Source of the DNA: Hormoscilla sp.
GTDB taxonomy: Bacteria; Cyanobacteriota; Cyanobacteriia; Cyanobacteriales; Desertifilaceae
Direction: 5' to 3'
NCBI GenBank assembly: GCA_051439505.1
Contig: JBFRWI010000002.1
Coordinates: 60,924-92,923, forward strand
DNA length: 32,000 bases
Shown here: piece by piece, positions 2,385 to 18,703 of the stretch
Numbering within the stretch: the stretch's first letter is position 1
How the letters are laid out: each line of letters begins with the position of its first letter
Position numbers and translations under genes: made by a program
The notes under the pieces: generated by a model
Database searches by the model: none
What the model was told of the DNA's origin: nothing
What the model saw: the letters and a program-made list of their open reading frames with translations, nothing else

Positions 2385-2429
2385 ATTTAAGACTCCTCGA
2401 ACGTGATGGTTTCACCATAAAAAAAGAAA

Positions 2430-2479
2430 GTGACATGAATGTGACACCATTTTTTTTCTGCTTGTCATTTTTCTGTCAC
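2430..2479. promoter_or_regulatory. Two TGTCAC/TGTCAT direct-repeat pairs (11-bp spacing) in the divergent promoter region
   Basis: GTGACA at 2430-2435 and 2441-2446 reads as TGTCAC-N5-TGTCAC on the minus strand. TGTCAT at 2463-2468 and TGTCAC at 2474-2479 lie on the plus strand. Start-to-start spacing is exactly 11 bp in both pairs. Confidence 0.5.
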
Positions 2480-2500
2480 ATTTACTTTTTATCTTCGGGA

Positions 2501-2520
2501 TAGAGTAGGCACCGCCCACC
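2501..2520. repeat. Degenerate copy of the TAGGGTGGGC-N3-GCCCACC palindromic element
   Basis: tagagtaggcaccgcccacc has two mismatches to the tagggtgggcaccgcccacc copies elsewhere in the window. Confidence 0.6.
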
Positions 2521-2667
2521 CTTGAGGCGATCGCACTATTGCTGTAACCTGATTGCTGTCATCTCTGTAATGTGTAAAATTTTCCGGACACCTCTTGTCA
2601 GTAATATTTCGGACATATTCTTTCACTTTTCACTGGCTAAAGTAGATGTCGTTCAGGAAAGCAAATC

Positions 2668-2952
2668 ATGATCCCGTTACTAATCAAGGAAAATCTAGTG
2701 CAGCCGTTCAAATACTGGAATGAAGGCATCAAAGAAGGGATGGTGAATCATCAAGGTGAATTGTATTCTTATGTGGGGTCATACCCCTTGAATAGAAGAG
2801 CGCAGGCTTATGAGTTAGGATGCGAAATGGCTGAAAAGGGAATGGATATCTGCCTAACTTACTCTCCGTTGGGTTATAAAGTATGGATGAAGCTGAAACT
2901 TTCTGAAGCTAATCAAACCGATAACCAGTTCGGTAACGTGCAAATAGCATGA
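2668..2952 (+). CDS. Hypothetical 94-aa protein
   Basis: ATG is preceded by aggaaag about 8 nt upstream. It sits between the two OB-fold genes. I recognise no motif. Confidence 0.5.
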   Translation: MIPLLIKENLVQPFKYWNEGIKEGMVNHQGELYSYVGSYPLNRRAQAYELGCEMAEKGMDICLTYSPLGYKVWMKLKLSEANQTDNQFGNVQIA

Positions 2953-2988
2953 ATAATTTTAATGAGCGATTGAAAAATCTGAGATGCA

Positions 2989-3005
2989 TGTCACTTTCTT
3001 GTCAC
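2989..3005 (+). promoter_or_regulatory. TGTCAC-N5-TGTCAC direct repeat upstream of the secreted OB-fold gene
   Basis: TGTCAC at 2989-2994 and 3000-3005 (11-bp spacing, followed by ATT as at 2474-2482), ~70-85 bp upstream of the ATG at 3076. Confidence 0.5.
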
Positions 3006-3075
3006 ATTCTGGAGTTAACGTCAGAATAGGACTACCCAAAAATAACTTTTGCCAACTAATTCAGGAACGATAATC

Positions 3076-3429
3076 ATGAACAAGACAATTGCCATAGCTT
3101 TATGTGCAGCTTCTTTTCTGTTGCCAGTTAGCGGAGTGCGAAGTCAAACCCCCATTGGAGATTTGCAGCGCCCTCATGGCGTTACTATTTCCGGCACCGT
3201 AAAGAGTGTAGTTGGTAATGAGTTTATTCTCCGCGACAGCAGTGGAGAAATTATCGTAGATGCGGGACCGCGCTGGAGGCAAGAAATTAATCTCACTCCC
3301 GGGGAACGAGTGACGGTTGTGGGTGAATACGACGACGATGATTTCGATGCTTATTCTATTTCTCGCAGTAGCGGTGAAGTCATCCAAATTCGTACCGAGG
3401 ATGATGATGATCCTTGGGAGGAACGGTAA
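3076..3429 (+). CDS. Secreted single-domain bacterial OB-fold (YgiW-like) protein
   Basis: ATG at 3076 has aggaa 8 nt upstream (the track's TTG at 3049 is less likely). Sec-type signal MNKTIAIALCAASFLLPVSG. Mature part GTVKSVVGNEFILRDSSGEIIVDAG...GERVTVVGEYDDDDFDAYSI is paralogous to the repeats in 1353-2384. Confidence 0.75.
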   Translation: MNKTIAIALCAASFLLPVSGVRSQTPIGDLQRPHGVTISGTVKSVVGNEFILRDSSGEIIVDAGPRWRQEINLTPGERVTVVGEYDDDDFDAYSISRSSGEVIQIRTEDDDDPWEER

Positions 3430-3690
3430 AAAAGACGCTTCAACTGCTGCCGGGGAAGATGCGATCGCTTTTAATATGATTCAACCTGTTGAGAATCAAC
3501 TTGAGGTTCTACGTAAGCGCCTTGCGCGCTTATCTTCCCTTGCTAGCATCAACCAGAGAGGACAGAACGCTATCTACTATCTCCTCTATATATTTGATAT
3601 CTTGTATCATTCTCAATAAGACCGATTAAGCTGGTTTGGGGGGATGGGACTGTTTCATCCCCTTCTAAATAATTTTCTAGGCGCTTTCTC

Positions 3691-3755
3691 GCCCGGAAAG
3701 CACTAAAGTGCTTACTACTAACTGCCCGGAAAGCACTAAAGTGCTTACTACTAAC
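3691..3755. repeat. Two abutting 33-bp units, each with an AAGCAC-N4-GTGCTT hairpin, just 3' of polA
   Basis: gcccggaaagcactaaagtgcttactactaac(t) at 3691-3723 and 3724-3755. The repeat starts 5 bp beyond the polA stop (3760-3762, minus strand). Confidence 0.85.
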
Positions 3756-3759
3756 GGTT

Positions 3760-13542: not shown

Positions 13543-13604
13543 GTGCGCGGGTTGTTGCTTGACCATCCGAACAGCATACTAAAAAACTGGTAATTTCCGG
13601 AAAA

Positions 13605-14870
13605 TCATCCCCATTTATACGCATATCCATCTCTTCTGAAGATAGGTTTTAGGTCTATTGGCTTGACTGACTTCTGGGTTTTGTCAGGTTTGGTCAACAT
13701 AAAACTACCGCGACTTCTGGGAGTAATTCTACCTATTCCATGAACTTTATGCTTGGCAATATCGCCAGTTTGCCATCCCTTGATGGGCTTTAATGGATTG
13801 TGACGGATTGGATATCCGTACTTGTTAAGAGCAGCTTTTTGACGACCTCCACGCCCCTTGCAAGTAATGAGTAGTGGCCGAGTAGTTGCGATTTTTAACA
13901 TGGGTGTACTTCTTCCCACACAAGCTGCATCGAGCCAATGAGTTTTGGGCAATCCTTGAAGAGTTCGGTTGTATTTTGTCAAACCACCCGTGCCAGTTTC
14001 AATGGCTAATCCAGTTTCCTTAAGGCGGTTAAACAATGCCCATCGGGTAGAGTTGACTGCCGCTGCATCTTTTAGGGGGGCTTTTGCTTGCGCTAGCAAC
14101 CGCTTCAAAACTTCCGGCTTCTTTTTTAGGAATTGCTCGACAGCAGAGGCTGCTTTTTTCTGGTTGCATTTATGGCAAGCGATAGCCAGATTGCTAACTC
14201 GGTCGGAACCTCCCTTACTCTTGGGATGAATGTGTTCGATTTCTAACGGGACTTCTTTGGCACCGCAGTAGGCACACTGGTGTCGCCATTTGGTCAAGAG
14301 ATATTCCCTCAACTCGTATCCAAACAAGACTCCATGCTGGTACTCAACCCCTGATATCTCAGGGTTTTGCAGCTTTTGTGTGTCAAACCGCACTAGCTCC
14401 ATTGAGATGTCCGTTATCGGGCAATACTTCCGCAGGCGCTTGACCCAGGTCATGACAGTTTCAACTCGATGTTGCAGGCTGGGAGCTAGCCATCCAAGGG
14501 GGCGCTTCCTGTTATTGAATCTCCCAGGACGATAACGAGTCTTACGGTTACGACGATTGCGACGAACAGCGCGACGGTCTGCTAACTTTTTCTTGATCGA
14601 GTCGCCTCTGTGAGTCAATTCCGCTGCCCATACAACTGTACCAGTCTTCTCATTCACTAGCACAATACCAGTCACTTTAGCTCCTGGGTCTAACTTAATC
14701 CGATGAGGTTCTAAGCCTGGATCTTCAACAGTTCTTCTGAGGATAATCGTAAACGGATAGGTTCTGAAAACCGCAGCCTTGCCCTGCTTTAAGAGCTTTC
14801 GCGCCCTGGCAGGGTGAATAGGATTGAGCCGCTGCTTGTTGGCATCTAAAACGAAAACACAATTTTGCAT
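13605..14870 (-). CDS. iscB: IscB, OMEGA-type RNA-guided endonuclease (split RuvC with inserted HNH)
   Basis: 421 aa. PLMP-like N-terminus VFVLDANKQRLNPIHPARARKLLKQGKAAV. RuvC-I IKLDPGAKVTGIV (Asp61). Arg-rich bridge helix RRAVRRNRRNRKTRYRPGRFNNRKRPLGWLAPS. RuvC-II ISMELVRFD. HNH CAYCG..LEIEHIHPKSKGGSDRVSNLAIACHKCN. RuvC-III THWLDAACVG. Confidence 0.9.
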   Translation of the reverse strand: MQNCVFVLDANKQRLNPIHPARARKLLKQGKAAVFRTYPFTIILRRTVEDPGLEPHRIKLDPGAKVTGIVLVNEKTGTVVWAAELTHRGDSIKKKLADRRAVRRNRRNRKTRYRPGRFNNRKRPLGWLAPSLQHRVETVMTWVKRLRKYCPITDISMELVRFDTQKLQNPEISGVEYQHGVLFGYELREYLLTKWRHQCAYCGAKEVPLEIEHIHPKSKGGSDRVSNLAIACHKCNQKKAASAVEQFLKKKPEVLKRLLAQAKAPLKDAAAVNSTRWALFNRLKETGLAIETGTGGLTKYNRTLQGLPKTHWLDAACVGRSTPMLKIATTRPLLITCKGRGGRQKAALNKYGYPIRHNPLKPIKGWQTGDIAKHKVHGIGRITPRSRGSFMLTKPDKTQKSVKPIDLKPIFRRDGYAYKWG

Positions 14871-15191
14871 TTAAGCAACTCCCAAAAAAGGGGTAAAGTT
14901 TGCCTCGGTCATGTTAAGGGTGCTTTTTACATCTAACTCACGCGGTCCTACAAAATCCATTCGTTCCGTTCCTTAAAGCTAGACGACAGAGCTACGAGCT
15001 GGCGCTCACCCGTAGGTATCATGACTCCCCTAACGTAGGTCTGATCCTGGACCTGCATCTTGCATCTTCCCGAGGGAGATAATTCCAACAAAGGTCAGAA
15101 ATTACCGGATTTTATGCAAGAGCTACCGACTCAGACATATTCTTTCTCCTGTTTTTACTTCAACGCTAACGCAACGCTAAATTTTAGCTAT
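14871..15191 (-). ncRNA. Candidate IscB omega-RNA (HEARO-type) 5' leader
   Basis: No ORF of 60 aa or more on either strand across 14871-15417. It lies directly 5' of iscB, where omega-RNAs are encoded. A near-consensus promoter sits at its 5' edge. Local stems include atcttcc-cga-ggGagat at 15064-15080. The 5' boundary and the fold were not determined. Confidence 0.55.
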
Positions 15192-15197
15192 ACTTCT

Positions 15198-15226
15198 ATT
15201 ATAACATAGATTGAAGCGAAACTCAA
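15198..15226 (-). promoter_or_regulatory. Sigma70-type promoter facing iscB
   Basis: Minus strand reads TTGAGT (15226-15221), a 17-bp spacer, then TATAAT (15203-15198). Confidence 0.45.
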
Positions 15227-15240
15227 CTTGCATTGCTGCT

Positions 15241-15413
15241 GTTGGGTTTCGTACCTGATACTGTTGGCCAATTAATTGGGGGGTATGACCCATTATCAGC
15301 CTCAAATGCTGATTGGGCTTGACTTTCCCCCCCCCTCCCCCCCTCCCTCCCTCACCCCCTCAGACGCCCCCGAATTGGTAATTCGCCAACAGCATCCCGT
15401 ACCTCAACCCAAC
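15241..15413. mobile_element. MITE-like element: ~40-bp imperfect terminal inverted repeats around a C-rich/G-rich core
   Basis: Left arm gttgggtttcgtacctgatactgttggccaattaattgg (15241-15279) matches the reverse complement of 15372-15413 (gttgggttgaggtacgggatgctgttggcgaattaccaattc). The core holds the C-run tract 15327-15371. The element ends 10 bp from the sodA stop. Confidence 0.5.
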
Positions 15414-15423
15414 CTACATGAAT

Positions 15424-16149
15424 TTAGGTAGAACGCGCCTGGGCAAACCGTTTATTCACTTCATCCCAGTTCACCACATTCCACCACGCCTTCAGGTACG
15501 CACCCCGATCGTTCCTGTAGTTGAGATAATAGGCATGTTCCCAAACATCATTTCCCATGATGGGATATTTGCCCTCCATCAAGGGACTATCCTGGTTAGG
15601 GGTACTCATCACCTCCAACTTGCCATCAGCAGTATAAACTAACCAGGCCCAACCACTGCCGAAACGCTTGCTGCCAGCATCGTTGAATTGTTCTTGGAAC
15701 TTGGCAAAGCTGCCAAACGCGGCATCCATGGCAGAGGCGATCGCCCCAGTTGGCTTCCCGCCAGCATTAGGAGCCATAATTTCCCAGAACATCTTATGAT
15801 TCACATAGCCGCCGCCATTATTGCGCACCGTTGTCTGGATATCTGCGGGAATACTTTTAATATTGAGCAGCAGTTCTTCTCCGCTGGTGCCTTTCAGTTC
15901 CGGATATTTGTCTAATGCCTTATTCAAGTTCCGGGTGTAACCAGCATGATGTTTGTCATGGTGAAACTTCATCGTTTCCGCATCGATGTATGGTTCCAAG
16001 GCATCGTAGGCATAGGGGAGAGGCGGTAACTCGAAACTACCCGCGTTCTGTTCCCCTGAATTGTCCCCAGATGCCTGGCAAGCACCGAAAGTGATGGCAC
16101 CGACCCCGACTCCCAGCATATACAAGAAATTCCGACGATTTACAACCAT
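15424..16149 (-). CDS. sodA: Mn-type superoxide dismutase with twin-arginine signal and lipobox-like cysteine
   Basis: [21 protein letters not shown] (Mn-type pattern) and [10 protein letters not shown]-terminus [27 protein letters not shown] at 16149 is preferred over the upstream TTG at 16173. Confidence 0.9.
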
Positions 16150-16208: not shown

Positions 16209-17399
16209 TTAGGCAGATCTTGACTGAGAGAGGCGTTTTACTTCTTCACCTCCTAGCAACTGATGCGCCTCTTCTAGTAAAGCAGGGATTTTGTCTCCAT
16301 GGGGACTATTCGCCAGACATTCGCGCAAGTCCATTTCCCGAACCCGCGAGGCATTATTTCCCGGAAACCAGTGACCTGCGTTACCCAGCAGATTATAGCG
16401 CCCTTTGGCATAGTCAATCATGTCGTAGGCCAGGGCGAGATTCCTCAACCACAGGATAACGGGAATATTGATGTTACCAGGCGTGTGATCGCACTCGGGT
16501 AATCCCACATGCCAGGTTTTCACCCAATCTTCCCCCAGAGTAGTAATTGCCTCCCGTTCCAACCGCCCTAAAATCGGCGGCAATATCTCTCCCGCCCGGT
16601 CTAATAGGGGCAAAACCTGCAAGTGTTCGTCAAAATCCGTCGGTCGTGCCACCCCCACACTGAGAGTATGTACCTGCTTGTGAGAAAGACAAAACAGGTC
16701 ATTAAACTGCATCGGAAGAAGGGGTTTACATAACTCTAGCAACTTGGGCGGCGGATCGTAAAGTTTCCCCCCCTTATCGGAAGGACTGATGATGAAAACA
16801 CCCAGATCGTGACGTTGCGCAGCTTCTATAGCAGGCCAGTTAACTTGATTGATGTAGTACCAGTGGAGATTCACGTAGTCAAACTGGTCGGTTTCAATAG
16901 TTTTGACAATGATGTCCGTCGGACCGTGAGTCGAGAAGCCAATAAACCGCACCTTGCCTTCCTCTTGCAGCTTCCGGGCCACCTCCAGACAGCCACCCTC
17001 TCGGATACTCTCGTGCAGCAACTCCGCCGTATTGATACCTTGCAGGGAGAGCAAATCAACATGGTCCAGCTTCAGGAAAGCCAGGGACTGCTCGAAATCA
17101 CGCCGAAACTCGACAGTGTCTGACCGGGGACTAATCTTGGTCTGGACAATTATCTGTTCGCGAGGAAACTGGGGCAAAAGCTGGCCTAGTTGCATCTCCG
17201 ATGTGCCATAGATCCTAGCCGTTTCAAAGTGATTGATGCCGACTTCTAAAGACCGACGAATATTTGCTTCCAGATTGCACTGGTTCTCCTCTGGAATCGA
17301 AGATATTAGCACATCCTCCCACTTATATTGATAGCGCATGCCACCGCAGGAGAATACTGGCATAAGTAGTTCTGTGCGCCCAAATCGTCTGTATTCCAT
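16209..17399 (-). CDS. Aldo/keto reductase family oxidoreductase (paralog 1)
   Basis: 396 aa. (Y)RRFGRT.L..PVFS.GGMR N-terminus and AKR-like core (INH.ETAR.YGTSE, VDLLSL.GIN). Highly similar to 17522-18703. Confidence 0.85.
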
Positions 17400-17521: not shown

Positions 17522-18703
17522 TTACGACTGAGAAAGGCGTTTTACTTCTTCACCTCCTAGCAACTGATGGGCCTCTTCTAGTAAAGCAGGGATTTTGTCC
17601 CCGTGGGGACTATTCGCCAAACATTCGCGCAAGTCCAGTTGCCTCACCCGCGAAGCCTGATTTCCCGGAAACCAGTGACCTCCGTTACCCAGCAGGTTAT
17701 AGCGCTTTTTGGCATAGTCAATCATGTCGTAGGCCAGGGCGAGATTTCTCAACCACAGGATAATGGGAATATTTATGTTATCAGGCGTCCGATCGTACTC
17801 GGGTAATCCGACATGCCAGGTTTTCACCCAATCTTCCTCCAGAGTAGTAATTGCCTCCTGTTCCAATCGCCCTAAAATCGGCGGCAATATCTCCTCCGCC
17901 CGGTCTAACAGGGGTAAAACCTCCAAATGTTCGTCAAAATCTGTGGGTCGCGCCGCCCCCAAACTGAGAGTATGTACCTGCTTGTGAGAAAGACAAAACA
18001 GGTCATTAAACTGCATCGGACTAAGGGGTTTACAGAGTTCTACCAACTTGGGCGGCGGCGCGTAAAGTTTGCCCCCCTTATCGGACGGACTGATGATAAA
18101 AACACCCATATCCTGGCGTTCCGCAGCTTCGATCGCAGGCCAGTTAACTTGATTGATGTAGTACCAGTGCAGATTCACGTAGTCAAACTGGCCAGTCTCA
18201 ATAGTTTTGACAATAATGTCTGTCGGACCGTGAGTCGAGAAACCAATAAACCGCACCTTGCCTTCGGTTTGCAGCTTGCGGGCCACATCCAGACAGCCAC
18301 CCGGTCGGATACTGTCGTGCAGCAACTCATCAGTATTGATACCGTGTAGGGACAGCAAATCGACATAGTCCAGCTTCAGGAAAGCCAGGGACTGCTCAAA
18401 CAGACGCAGAAACTCGACTGTGTCTGACTTGGGATAAACCTTGGTCTGGACAATCAGCTGTTCGCGAGGAAACTGGGGCAGAATCTTGCCCAGCTGCATC
18501 TCCGAGGTGCCATAGTCCCTAGCCGTTTCTATGTGATTGATGCCGACTTCCACAGACCGGCGAATAGTCGCTTCCAGATTGCGCTGGTTGTCCTGGGGAA
18601 TCTCCGATGCTGGCAGATCCTGCCACTTGTATTGATAGCGCATACCGCCGCAGGAGAATACTGGTATTTGCAATTGAGTGCGCCCAAATCGTCTGTATTG
18701 CAT
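17522..18703 (-). CDS. Aldo/keto reductase family oxidoreductase (paralog 2)
   Basis: 393 aa, collinear with 16209-17399 along its full length with scattered substitutions. Confidence 0.85.
   Translation of the reverse strand: MQYRRFGRTQLQIPVFSCGGMRYQYKWQDLPASEIPQDNQRNLEATIRRSVEVGINHIETARDYGTSEMQLGKILPQFPREQLIVQTKVYPKSDTVEFLRLFEQSLAFLKLDYVDLLSLHGINTDELLHDSIRPGGCLDVARKLQTEGKVRFIGFSTHGPTDIIVKTIETGQFDYVNLHWYYINQVNWPAIEAAERQDMGVFIISPSDKGGKLYAPPPKLVELCKPLSPMQFNDLFCLSHKQVHTLSLGAARPTDFDEHLEVLPLLDRAEEILPPILGRLEQEAITTLEEDWVKTWHVGLPEYDRTPDNINIPIILWLRNLALAYDMIDYAKKRYNLLGNGGHWFPGNQASRVRQLDLRECLANSPHGDKIPALLEEAHQLLGGEEVKRLSQS

Follow-up and report, generated by a model that had tools for sequence, protein, structure and literature searches.

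A sodB-like gene ends with its stop at position 15424 and an iscB gene starts with its ATG at 14870, both on the minus strand of the window (the whole stretch of Hormoscilla sp. DNA that we analyzed, 32,000 nucleotides long), and the 553 bp between them contain only mechanical ORFs of less than 52 aa. The question raised by this locus is what such a gap encodes. A preliminary description made from the sequence alone had noted the absence of ORFs, had called the gap far larger than most in the window, and had proposed that it encodes an ω-RNA (HEARO RNA; the two are equivalent according to the literature), lying 5' of iscB on the same strand with a guide at its 5' end. The gap is indeed the second largest between ORFs of at least 120 aa, but it is composite, comprising the ω-RNA, 104 nt of host promoter and leader, a 142-nt MITE (15397-15256), and sodB-proximal sequence. 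The proposal itself holds: the gap encodes the ω-RNA of a small IscB transposon, as seen from a significant covariance-model match and from the conservation of the leader among paralogues. The best explanation of the locus as a whole, in which we place high confidence, is that the RNA belongs to a 1548-bp non-autonomous IS200/IS605-type IscB element in the leader of rsgA and takes its guide from the host flank. The rest of the window resembles a cyanobacterial chromosome, with polA, the genes for phytoene desaturase and synthase, a fumarase gene, and rsgA.

The gene next to the gap is the following.

13605-14870, minus strand: iscB ORF, 421 aa, intact.

The encoded protein matches the Pfam families RRXRR (8.5e-74) and HNH (2e-12), and is homologous to IscB proteins of known structure (TbaIscB, 1.6e-44; OgeuIscB, about 1e-28). 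Its N-terminus carries the PLMP/RRXRR region and its RuvC domain is split, with an HNH domain inserted, and alignment to OgeuIscB and other solved IscB proteins shows that the RuvC and HNH catalytic motifs LDPG (D61), MELVRF, EIEHIHP/SNLAIAC, and THWLDA are kept, with the catalytic residues intact. None of the window ORFs scanned resembles TnpA; according to published figures, tnpA lies near only about 1.5% of iscB genes.

The RNA is missed by a standard search, as no Rfam family reaches its gathering threshold anywhere in the window. The covariance-model search for HEARO proposed in the preliminary description succeeds in E-value mode only, where the full-length model (RF02033, positions 1-211) matches 14893-15063 on the minus strand, the strand of iscB, with 74.7 bits (E 4e-15); the match stops 22 nt before the iscB ATG. 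The gathering score of HEARO is 83 bits, which is an annotation threshold and not a biological feature, and the window RNA falls 8 bits short of it because its 5' domain has diverged, such that model positions 1-52 are effectively unaligned and 8 unaligned bases stand in their place. Default Rfam annotation therefore misses this RNA. Relatives found through the IscB protein score 84-153 bits against HEARO at the equivalent place upstream of their own iscB genes, with the Arthrospira copies, whose RNA is 78-80% identical to that of the window, only just over the gathering score (84-89 bits). None of the five intact-length Hormoscilla paralogues scanned (L001-L005) has a gathering-level HEARO match, and the window RNA is 94.5% identical to the RNA of the intact paralogues; the gathering threshold is thus shown to miss this Hormoscilla subfamily. 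A model of our own (R1), built from the subfamily alignment of the ω-RNA, assigns 268.8 bits to the window RNA and finds 30 further copies among the fetched loci, all just upstream of iscB. In the window itself there is exactly one copy, with no extra or stand-alone ω-RNA elsewhere. The scaffold can be delimited as follows, the published mean for IscB ω-RNA scaffolds being 242 nt.

14871-15122, minus strand: ω-RNA (HEARO) scaffold, from the transposon end to the iscB start codon, about 252 nt, with its 3' end at or beyond 14893.

The upstream limit of this interval comes from the alignment to paralogous IscB loci, which had been suggested as a way to find the guide boundary and places it at 15122. 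Here identity rises from background to 78-100%, and it drops again at 13572, with unrelated flanks on either side. Altogether, 13 independent insertions, from genomes and metagenomes of Hormoscilla and Arthrospira and all differing in their flanks, share a conserved block that starts CTN-TTGCATAAAATCC, and the end downstream of iscB always reads ...TA(T/C)(G/A)CTG before giving way to unrelated sequence. Among the relatives, the closest occur as multi-copy elements, in Hormoscilla genome bins with 87-93% protein identity and in Arthrospira platensis with about 78%. Five of the members were gained by scanning metagenomes with a boundary 20-mer, which gave ten matches; four of the ten (L048, L049, L051, and L056) were rejected as unrelated chance matches.

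The same boundaries emerge from sites that lack the element. Contigs reached through RsgA homologues with 95, 89, and 88% identity, from three related lineages, have rsgA directly after sodB and lack iscB. Their empty sites (L058, L059, L060, and L063) read GTCGGTAG-CTG-TTCGG, with a single CTG between the flanks, and the sister intergenic sequence aligns with both flanks of the window element (...ATATGT(A/C)TGA(G/T)TCGGTAG-CTG-TTCGGATGG...). The occupied site in the window reads ...GTCGGTAG-[CTCTTGCAT...AGTATG]-CTG-TTCGG..., with the element in square brackets. Comparison of the empty and occupied sites therefore shows that the insertion took place without target duplication and that the element is 1548 bp long, with the junction ambiguous by up to 2 nt, since CT is common to both ends. 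The exact empty-site pattern has no match in the metagenomes searched, and the sister strains are one base off in the guide.

13575-15122, minus strand: whole IscB mobile element, 1548 bp, non-autonomous IS200/IS605-type, delimited by paralogue boundaries and empty sites.
13575-13604, minus strand: element end downstream of iscB, with the subterminal palindrome CCGGAAATTACCAG (13600-13587).

In place of terminal inverted repeats, both ends carry imperfect subterminal palindromes, CCGGTAATTTCTGA (from 15108) and CCGGAAATTACCAG. The assignment to the IS200/IS605 type rests on the existence of several copies that agree in their ends but not in their flanks, on the lack of target duplication, and on a short conserved motif adjoining the element. 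The element sits in the 5' leader of rsgA, downstream of sodB and in the same orientation as both genes, and its presence in some and absence from other close strains points to recent mobility.

Various other states of the element, and of its surroundings, were encountered among the fetched loci. One decayed paralogue in a Hormoscilla bin (L007:2925-3054) retains only the first ~76 nt of the ω-RNA, fused to about codon 129 of iscB, and in another (L004:3001-4259) iscB is disrupted, the longest ORF starting about 270 nt into the gene. A 347-bp miniature derivative (L054:6278-6624) has both ends and the full ω-RNA without iscB; it is a stand-alone ω-RNA element resembling a palindrome-associated transposable element (PATE). 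Rfam matches at the gathering threshold include group II intron domains near two IscB copies (L002:1565-1641 and L008:5473-5550) and a cobalamin riboswitch upstream of a Poribacteria IscB copy (L019:1263-1456).

With the boundary at 15122, the guide and the opposite flank are defined.

15123-15138, minus strand: guide segment ATGTCTGAGTCGGTAG, host flank just outside the element, 16 nt assumed, up to about 24 nt (15146).
13572-13574, minus strand: CTG (CAG on the plus strand), host-derived candidate target-adjacent motif, adjoining the element end downstream of iscB.

No two of the 13 copies have the same sequence directly 5' of the conserved boundary, and that of the window is identical to, or one mismatch from, the empty-site sequence of the sister strains. 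The empty site therefore identifies the guide as the host flank 15138-15123. Its length is assumed, as usable IscB spacers range from 16 to 24 nt in the literature. The guide is unique in the window, where no other target was found with up to 3 mismatches. On the opposite side, CTG follows all 12 of the element ends downstream of iscB, whereas the other end of the element starts CTC, CTT, or CTA, but never CTG, in the 13 copies. The position of the CTG, 3' of the protospacer on the iscB strand, is where IscB needs a 3' target-adjacent motif, and from the sequence comparison we infer that CTG is this motif. However, it comprises only 3 nt, and the true motif may be longer or different, given that the flank positions beside CTG vary among copies and that its length is not fixed by the comparison.

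A guide located outside the element means that transcription must begin in host DNA, and a candidate start lies nearby.

15198-15226, minus strand: host promoter-like site TTGAGT-17-TGnTATAAT, with 10/12 matches and an extended -10 TG.
15139-15191, minus strand: host leader from the predicted transcription start to the guide, with a tandem TTAGCGTTG repeat (15180-15161) and the Shine-Dalgarno sequence AGGAG (15150-15146).

The preliminary description had recognized this promoter (TTGAGT-17-TATAAT at 15226-15198) and the tandem repeat, and had derived from them a transcript of ~320 nt starting near 15191. Both sequences are present, the repeat as two occurrences of TTAGCGTTG 11 nt apart, the first unit being preceded by T and not by G as had been written, but both are host sequence from the rsgA leader. 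The arithmetic is also right, with 321 nt from the predicted start to the ATG, but the ω-RNA proper is shorter, as the scaffold starts only at 15122 and measures about 252 nt, to which the guide adds roughly 16-24 nt. A generic promoter scan of 2.4 kb on both strands gives no excess over chance, with 2 sites versus 2.6 expected from shuffles; a site as good as this one, sought on the correct strand of the upstream flank (301 nt), is nonetheless uncommon in dinucleotide shuffles, with P = 0.024 for at least 10/12 matches and P = 0.0016 when the TG is included. The insertion-free L058, L060, and L063 keep the block that extends from the -35 to the guide sequence and includes the tandem repeat and the Shine-Dalgarno sequence; they retain a -10 TATGAT with its TG and have TTGGGT or CTGAGC as the -35; the sequence from sodB to this block is unrelated in each insertion-free strain. 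No paralogue of the element has the promoter or the tandem repeat. Eight of the other 11 copies lack any promoter-like site within 300 nt upstream, and a site with at least 10/12 matches occurs in L055 alone (11/12, 202 nt upstream). The promoter is conserved in insertion-free strains and is therefore host sequence that predates the insertion. On the same two grounds, absence from paralogues and presence in insertion-free strains, we rejected the promoter as part of the element and the tandem repeat as part of the guide or scaffold. More generally, a near-consensus promoter in such a leader can be host sequence, and is not to be annotated as part of the element.

The site at 15226-15198 probably served the rsgA leader as its native promoter and is now placed to transcribe the guide and scaffold. 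A host-owned promoter fits the published model, in which IscB guide RNAs need a transcription start outside the element and IscB elements favor transcribed sites, in the orientation of the upstream gene (bioRxiv 10.1101/2023.03.14.532601). A transcript from about 15191 would begin 53 nt ahead of the 16-nt guide, and trimming therefore has to be assumed. The guide also overlaps the Shine-Dalgarno sequence and start codon of a mini-ORF, MSESVALA*, which runs into stem P1 of the scaffold and has its stop at 15114-15112, and ribosomes on this mini-ORF could compete with RNA folding.

The guide-carrying transcript might instead arise mainly by read-through from sodB, which would leave the RNA real but relieve the promoter of its role. 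We regard this as a minority possibility, though a credible one: sodB is on the same strand 301 nt upstream of the element, the literature stresses an orientation bias toward upstream genes, and no intrinsic terminator was detected on the minus strand between 15423 and 15122. Against it, an insertion right after the sodB stop folds to a hairpin stable enough that it could block or process such a transcript.

15256-15397: MITE-like insertion, 142 nt, directly after the sodB stop, with the terminal inverted repeats GATGCTGTTGGC and GCCAACAGTATC.

Its predicted hairpin has a free energy of -79 kcal/mol (z = -5.8). In the sister strains, moreover, sodB is followed by GC-rich hairpins, one of them with a T-run (L060), and then by the conserved promoter-like block, which implies a separate transcription unit. 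The promoter at 15226-15198 thus remains the likelier source. As for the insertion itself, it is bordered by the target duplication GGTACG (15398-15403 and 15250-15255), its core is G-rich with runs of 7-9 G at about 15330-15375, and it is absent from the sister strain L063, where GAGGTACGAAA is uninterrupted; no second copy was found in the window or the fetched loci. We had considered the inverted repeat at 15251-15402 as part of the ω-RNA leader, and rejected it in view of the GGTACG duplication and its absence from L063, which identify it as a MITE.

The structure of the RNA was predicted by RNAalifold and minimum-free-energy folding, and differs from the Rfam consensus mainly in sequence at the 5' end.

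15058-15121, minus strand: scaffold 5' domain, stem P1 enclosing two hairpins (about 15106-15078 and 15080-15064).

In P1, TCTTGCAT (15121-15114) is paired with ATGCAAGA (15065-15058). The domain replaces HEARO model positions 1-52 and also serves as the subterminal palindrome of the transposon end. When the Rfam consensus is aligned to L017 and L008, its first 52 positions likewise form a stem around two hairpins, so that the window RNA has a like architecture with a different sequence. The two local stems pointed out beforehand, at 15064-15080 and 15038-15053, are both present and predicted on folding, as ATCTCCC-TCG-GGAAGAT (15080-15064) and GGTC-CAGGATCA-GACC (15053-15038). The predicted layout of the ω-RNA is thus P1 with its two enclosed hairpins, followed by the HEARO core.

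We tested the structure obtained by projecting the Rfam consensus on the window RNA and adding P1, with 55 pairs in total, of which 49 are canonical in the window RNA. In the subfamily alignment (10 sequences with little variation), 87% are paired, compared with 31-41% when the partners are slid, and 5 pairs show double changes. Family-wide, with 28 distinct sequences aligned, pairing reaches 89% of cells, compared with 30-39% for slid partners, and 45 of the 55 pairs, including all 8 pairs of P1, show compensatory changes on both sides; these figures are generous, as the alignment was fitted to the structure of the model, which inflates the pair counts. Thermodynamic stability was rejected as evidence for the RNA, because the minimum free energy of the 252-nt sequence is unremarkable and uninformative (z = -0.98).

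Just past the HEARO match, CCCC (14893-14890)-TTTTTT-GGGAG (14883-14879) could form a small hairpin overlapping the Shine-Dalgarno sequence of iscB, and a similar CCC...GGG pairing is possible in the Arthrospira copies. Such a hairpin at 14879-14893 may link RNA folding to iscB translation. Taken further, the conserved leader could be only a cis-acting 5' UTR that controls iscB translation and not a trans-acting guide, a reading in keeping with an RNA that reaches the iscB ribosome-binding site and with the overlap between the CCC...GGG hairpin (14892-14881) and GGGAG. We nevertheless consider it very improbable. Homologous RNAs have been established by experiment and structure as IscB-bound guide RNAs (PDB entries; literature), a variable flank that gives way abruptly to conserved scaffold at the transposon end is characteristic of a guide-scaffold junction, and a cis role could in any case coexist with the guide role that we favor.

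The insertion also splits a conserved stretch of host sequence. RsgA is a 30S ribosome-biogenesis GTPase, and its leader, represented in the window by 15150-15123 joined to 13574-13429, is intact in six other loci (L058:4837-5003, L060, L063, L065:1290-1503, L067, and L068). The intact leader has a strong Shine-Dalgarno sequence and a short upstream ORF beginning ATGTCTGAGTCGGTAGC (ATGTCTGAG(T/A)(C/T)(G/T)GTAGC). This ORF, MSESVAV..., has 24-37 codons, of which only MSE[S/I]VA is conserved, and its first 17 nt are nearly unchanged ahead of rsgA in Hormoscilla-like strains, a TARA contig, Kamptonema, and another filamentous cyanobacterium. In the 3'-terminal part of the ORF, an SD-like CACAGAGG can pair with the conserved CCTCTGTG, which could alternatively pair with the rsgA Shine-Dalgarno sequence AGAGGAAA. 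The IscB insertion lies in codon 6 of the upstream ORF, cutting the window version to MSESVALA*. A search of the leader against Rfam gave no family matches. We tentatively suggest that this undescribed leader is a translation-sensing switch that tunes RsgA to the ribosome supply, and that the IscB element captured its promoter while splitting the switch, although we would rate this idea as rather doubtful. If it is true, the guide lies inside a translated 8-codon mini-ORF, and rsgA has been parted from the 5' half of its control region.

For the element as a whole, we propose the following course of events. The element would have inserted next to CTG in the rsgA 5' leader, without target duplication. 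Transcription of the guide and scaffold would most likely start near 15191, from the host promoter at 15226-15198, giving a precursor with about 53 extra 5' nt to be trimmed, and the intact 421-aa IscB would bind the resulting ω-RNA, by analogy with characterized IscB systems. TnpA supplied in trans would excise the element, upon which IscB would cut the resealed empty site, where the protospacer ATGTCTGAGTCGGTAG is followed by CTG. Repair of the break from a sister chromosome still carrying the element would then restore it. The occupied site would be spared, as the element end there reads CTC, not CTG.

Such a cycle presupposes that the copy is active, and it could instead be an inactive relic, with a HEARO homologue that no longer works as a guide RNA because it is unexpressed, unprocessed, or left without a partner transposase. 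The lack of TnpA in the window would agree with this, as would the decay of sister copies (a disrupted ORF in L004, an internal deletion in L007, and loss of iscB in L054), the 53 extra nt of a precursor from 15191, and the mini-ORF that overlaps the guide. Still, we think it unlikely, considering that the iscB ORF has kept its full length and its catalytic motifs, that the scaffold keeps its near-identity to the RNA of intact paralogues and most of its canonical pairs, and that the variable presence of the insertion among close strains points to recent mobility. We therefore describe the locus as an ordinary and probably functional IscB element with its ω-RNA, in which nothing departs from the published mechanism.

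As such, the locus offers little new biology, and confirms the published IscB model in a cyanobacterial sponge-symbiont lineage, the closest genomes being those of Hormoscilla. Its value lies in an unusually well delimited natural pair of occupied and empty sites, which fixes the guide, the boundaries, and the candidate CTG motif for a compact IscB of 421 aa. Two further observations concern the surrounding DNA. Upstream of sodB are tandem paralogous aldo/keto reductase genes (16209-17399 and 17522-18703), of which there are two in L058 and one each in L060 and L063. The largest stretch of the window without a recognizable gene is 2385-3759; it has no Rfam match, and its sole ORF of at least 120 aa (3049-3429) matches nothing in Pfam.

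Among known systems, the closest parallel at the RNA level is HEARO itself (RF02033), with which the window RNA shares its position and strand relative to an RRXRR/HNH ORF, the core helices, a P1 stem around two hairpins, and the strings CUACGUUA, GCUCUG, and UAACA..CGAGGC.AAC.UUAC, while its 5' domain has diverged in sequence. The organization of the element is that of the ISGst IscB element from Geobacillus stearothermophilus (Meers et al., bioRxiv 10.1101/2023.03.14.532601). Both belong to the non-autonomous elements of the IS200/IS605 type, with a scaffold bounded by the transposon end upstream of iscB and a guide taken from the host flank. Both have an external transcription start, a predicted one in the window, and share the orientation of the upstream gene, and both have a short motif abutting the opposite end, with a similar but distinct motif inside the element. 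They differ in that the candidate adjacent motif is CAG/CTG here and TTCAT in Geobacillus, in the cyanobacterial host, and in the lack here of a TnpA-like partner among the ORFs scanned. The OgeuIscB-ω-RNA complex (PDB 7XHT, 7UTN, and 8CSZ) is an RNA-guided nuclease with a 5' guide, and the homology of the proteins (E about 1e-28), with their catalytic motifs aligned, suggests by analogy that the window system may act likewise; the window protein is shorter (421 versus 496 aa), mainly at the C-terminus, and its scaffold, about 252 nt long, differs in the 5' domain. Finally, the TnpB ω-RNA (reRNA) of IS200/IS605 and IS607 elements follows the same logic of a transposon-encoded scaffold, a guide read from the flank, and the empty site as target, but there the RNA occupies the 3' end of the gene, the guide is 3' and the adjacent motif 5', and the nuclease has RuvC only.
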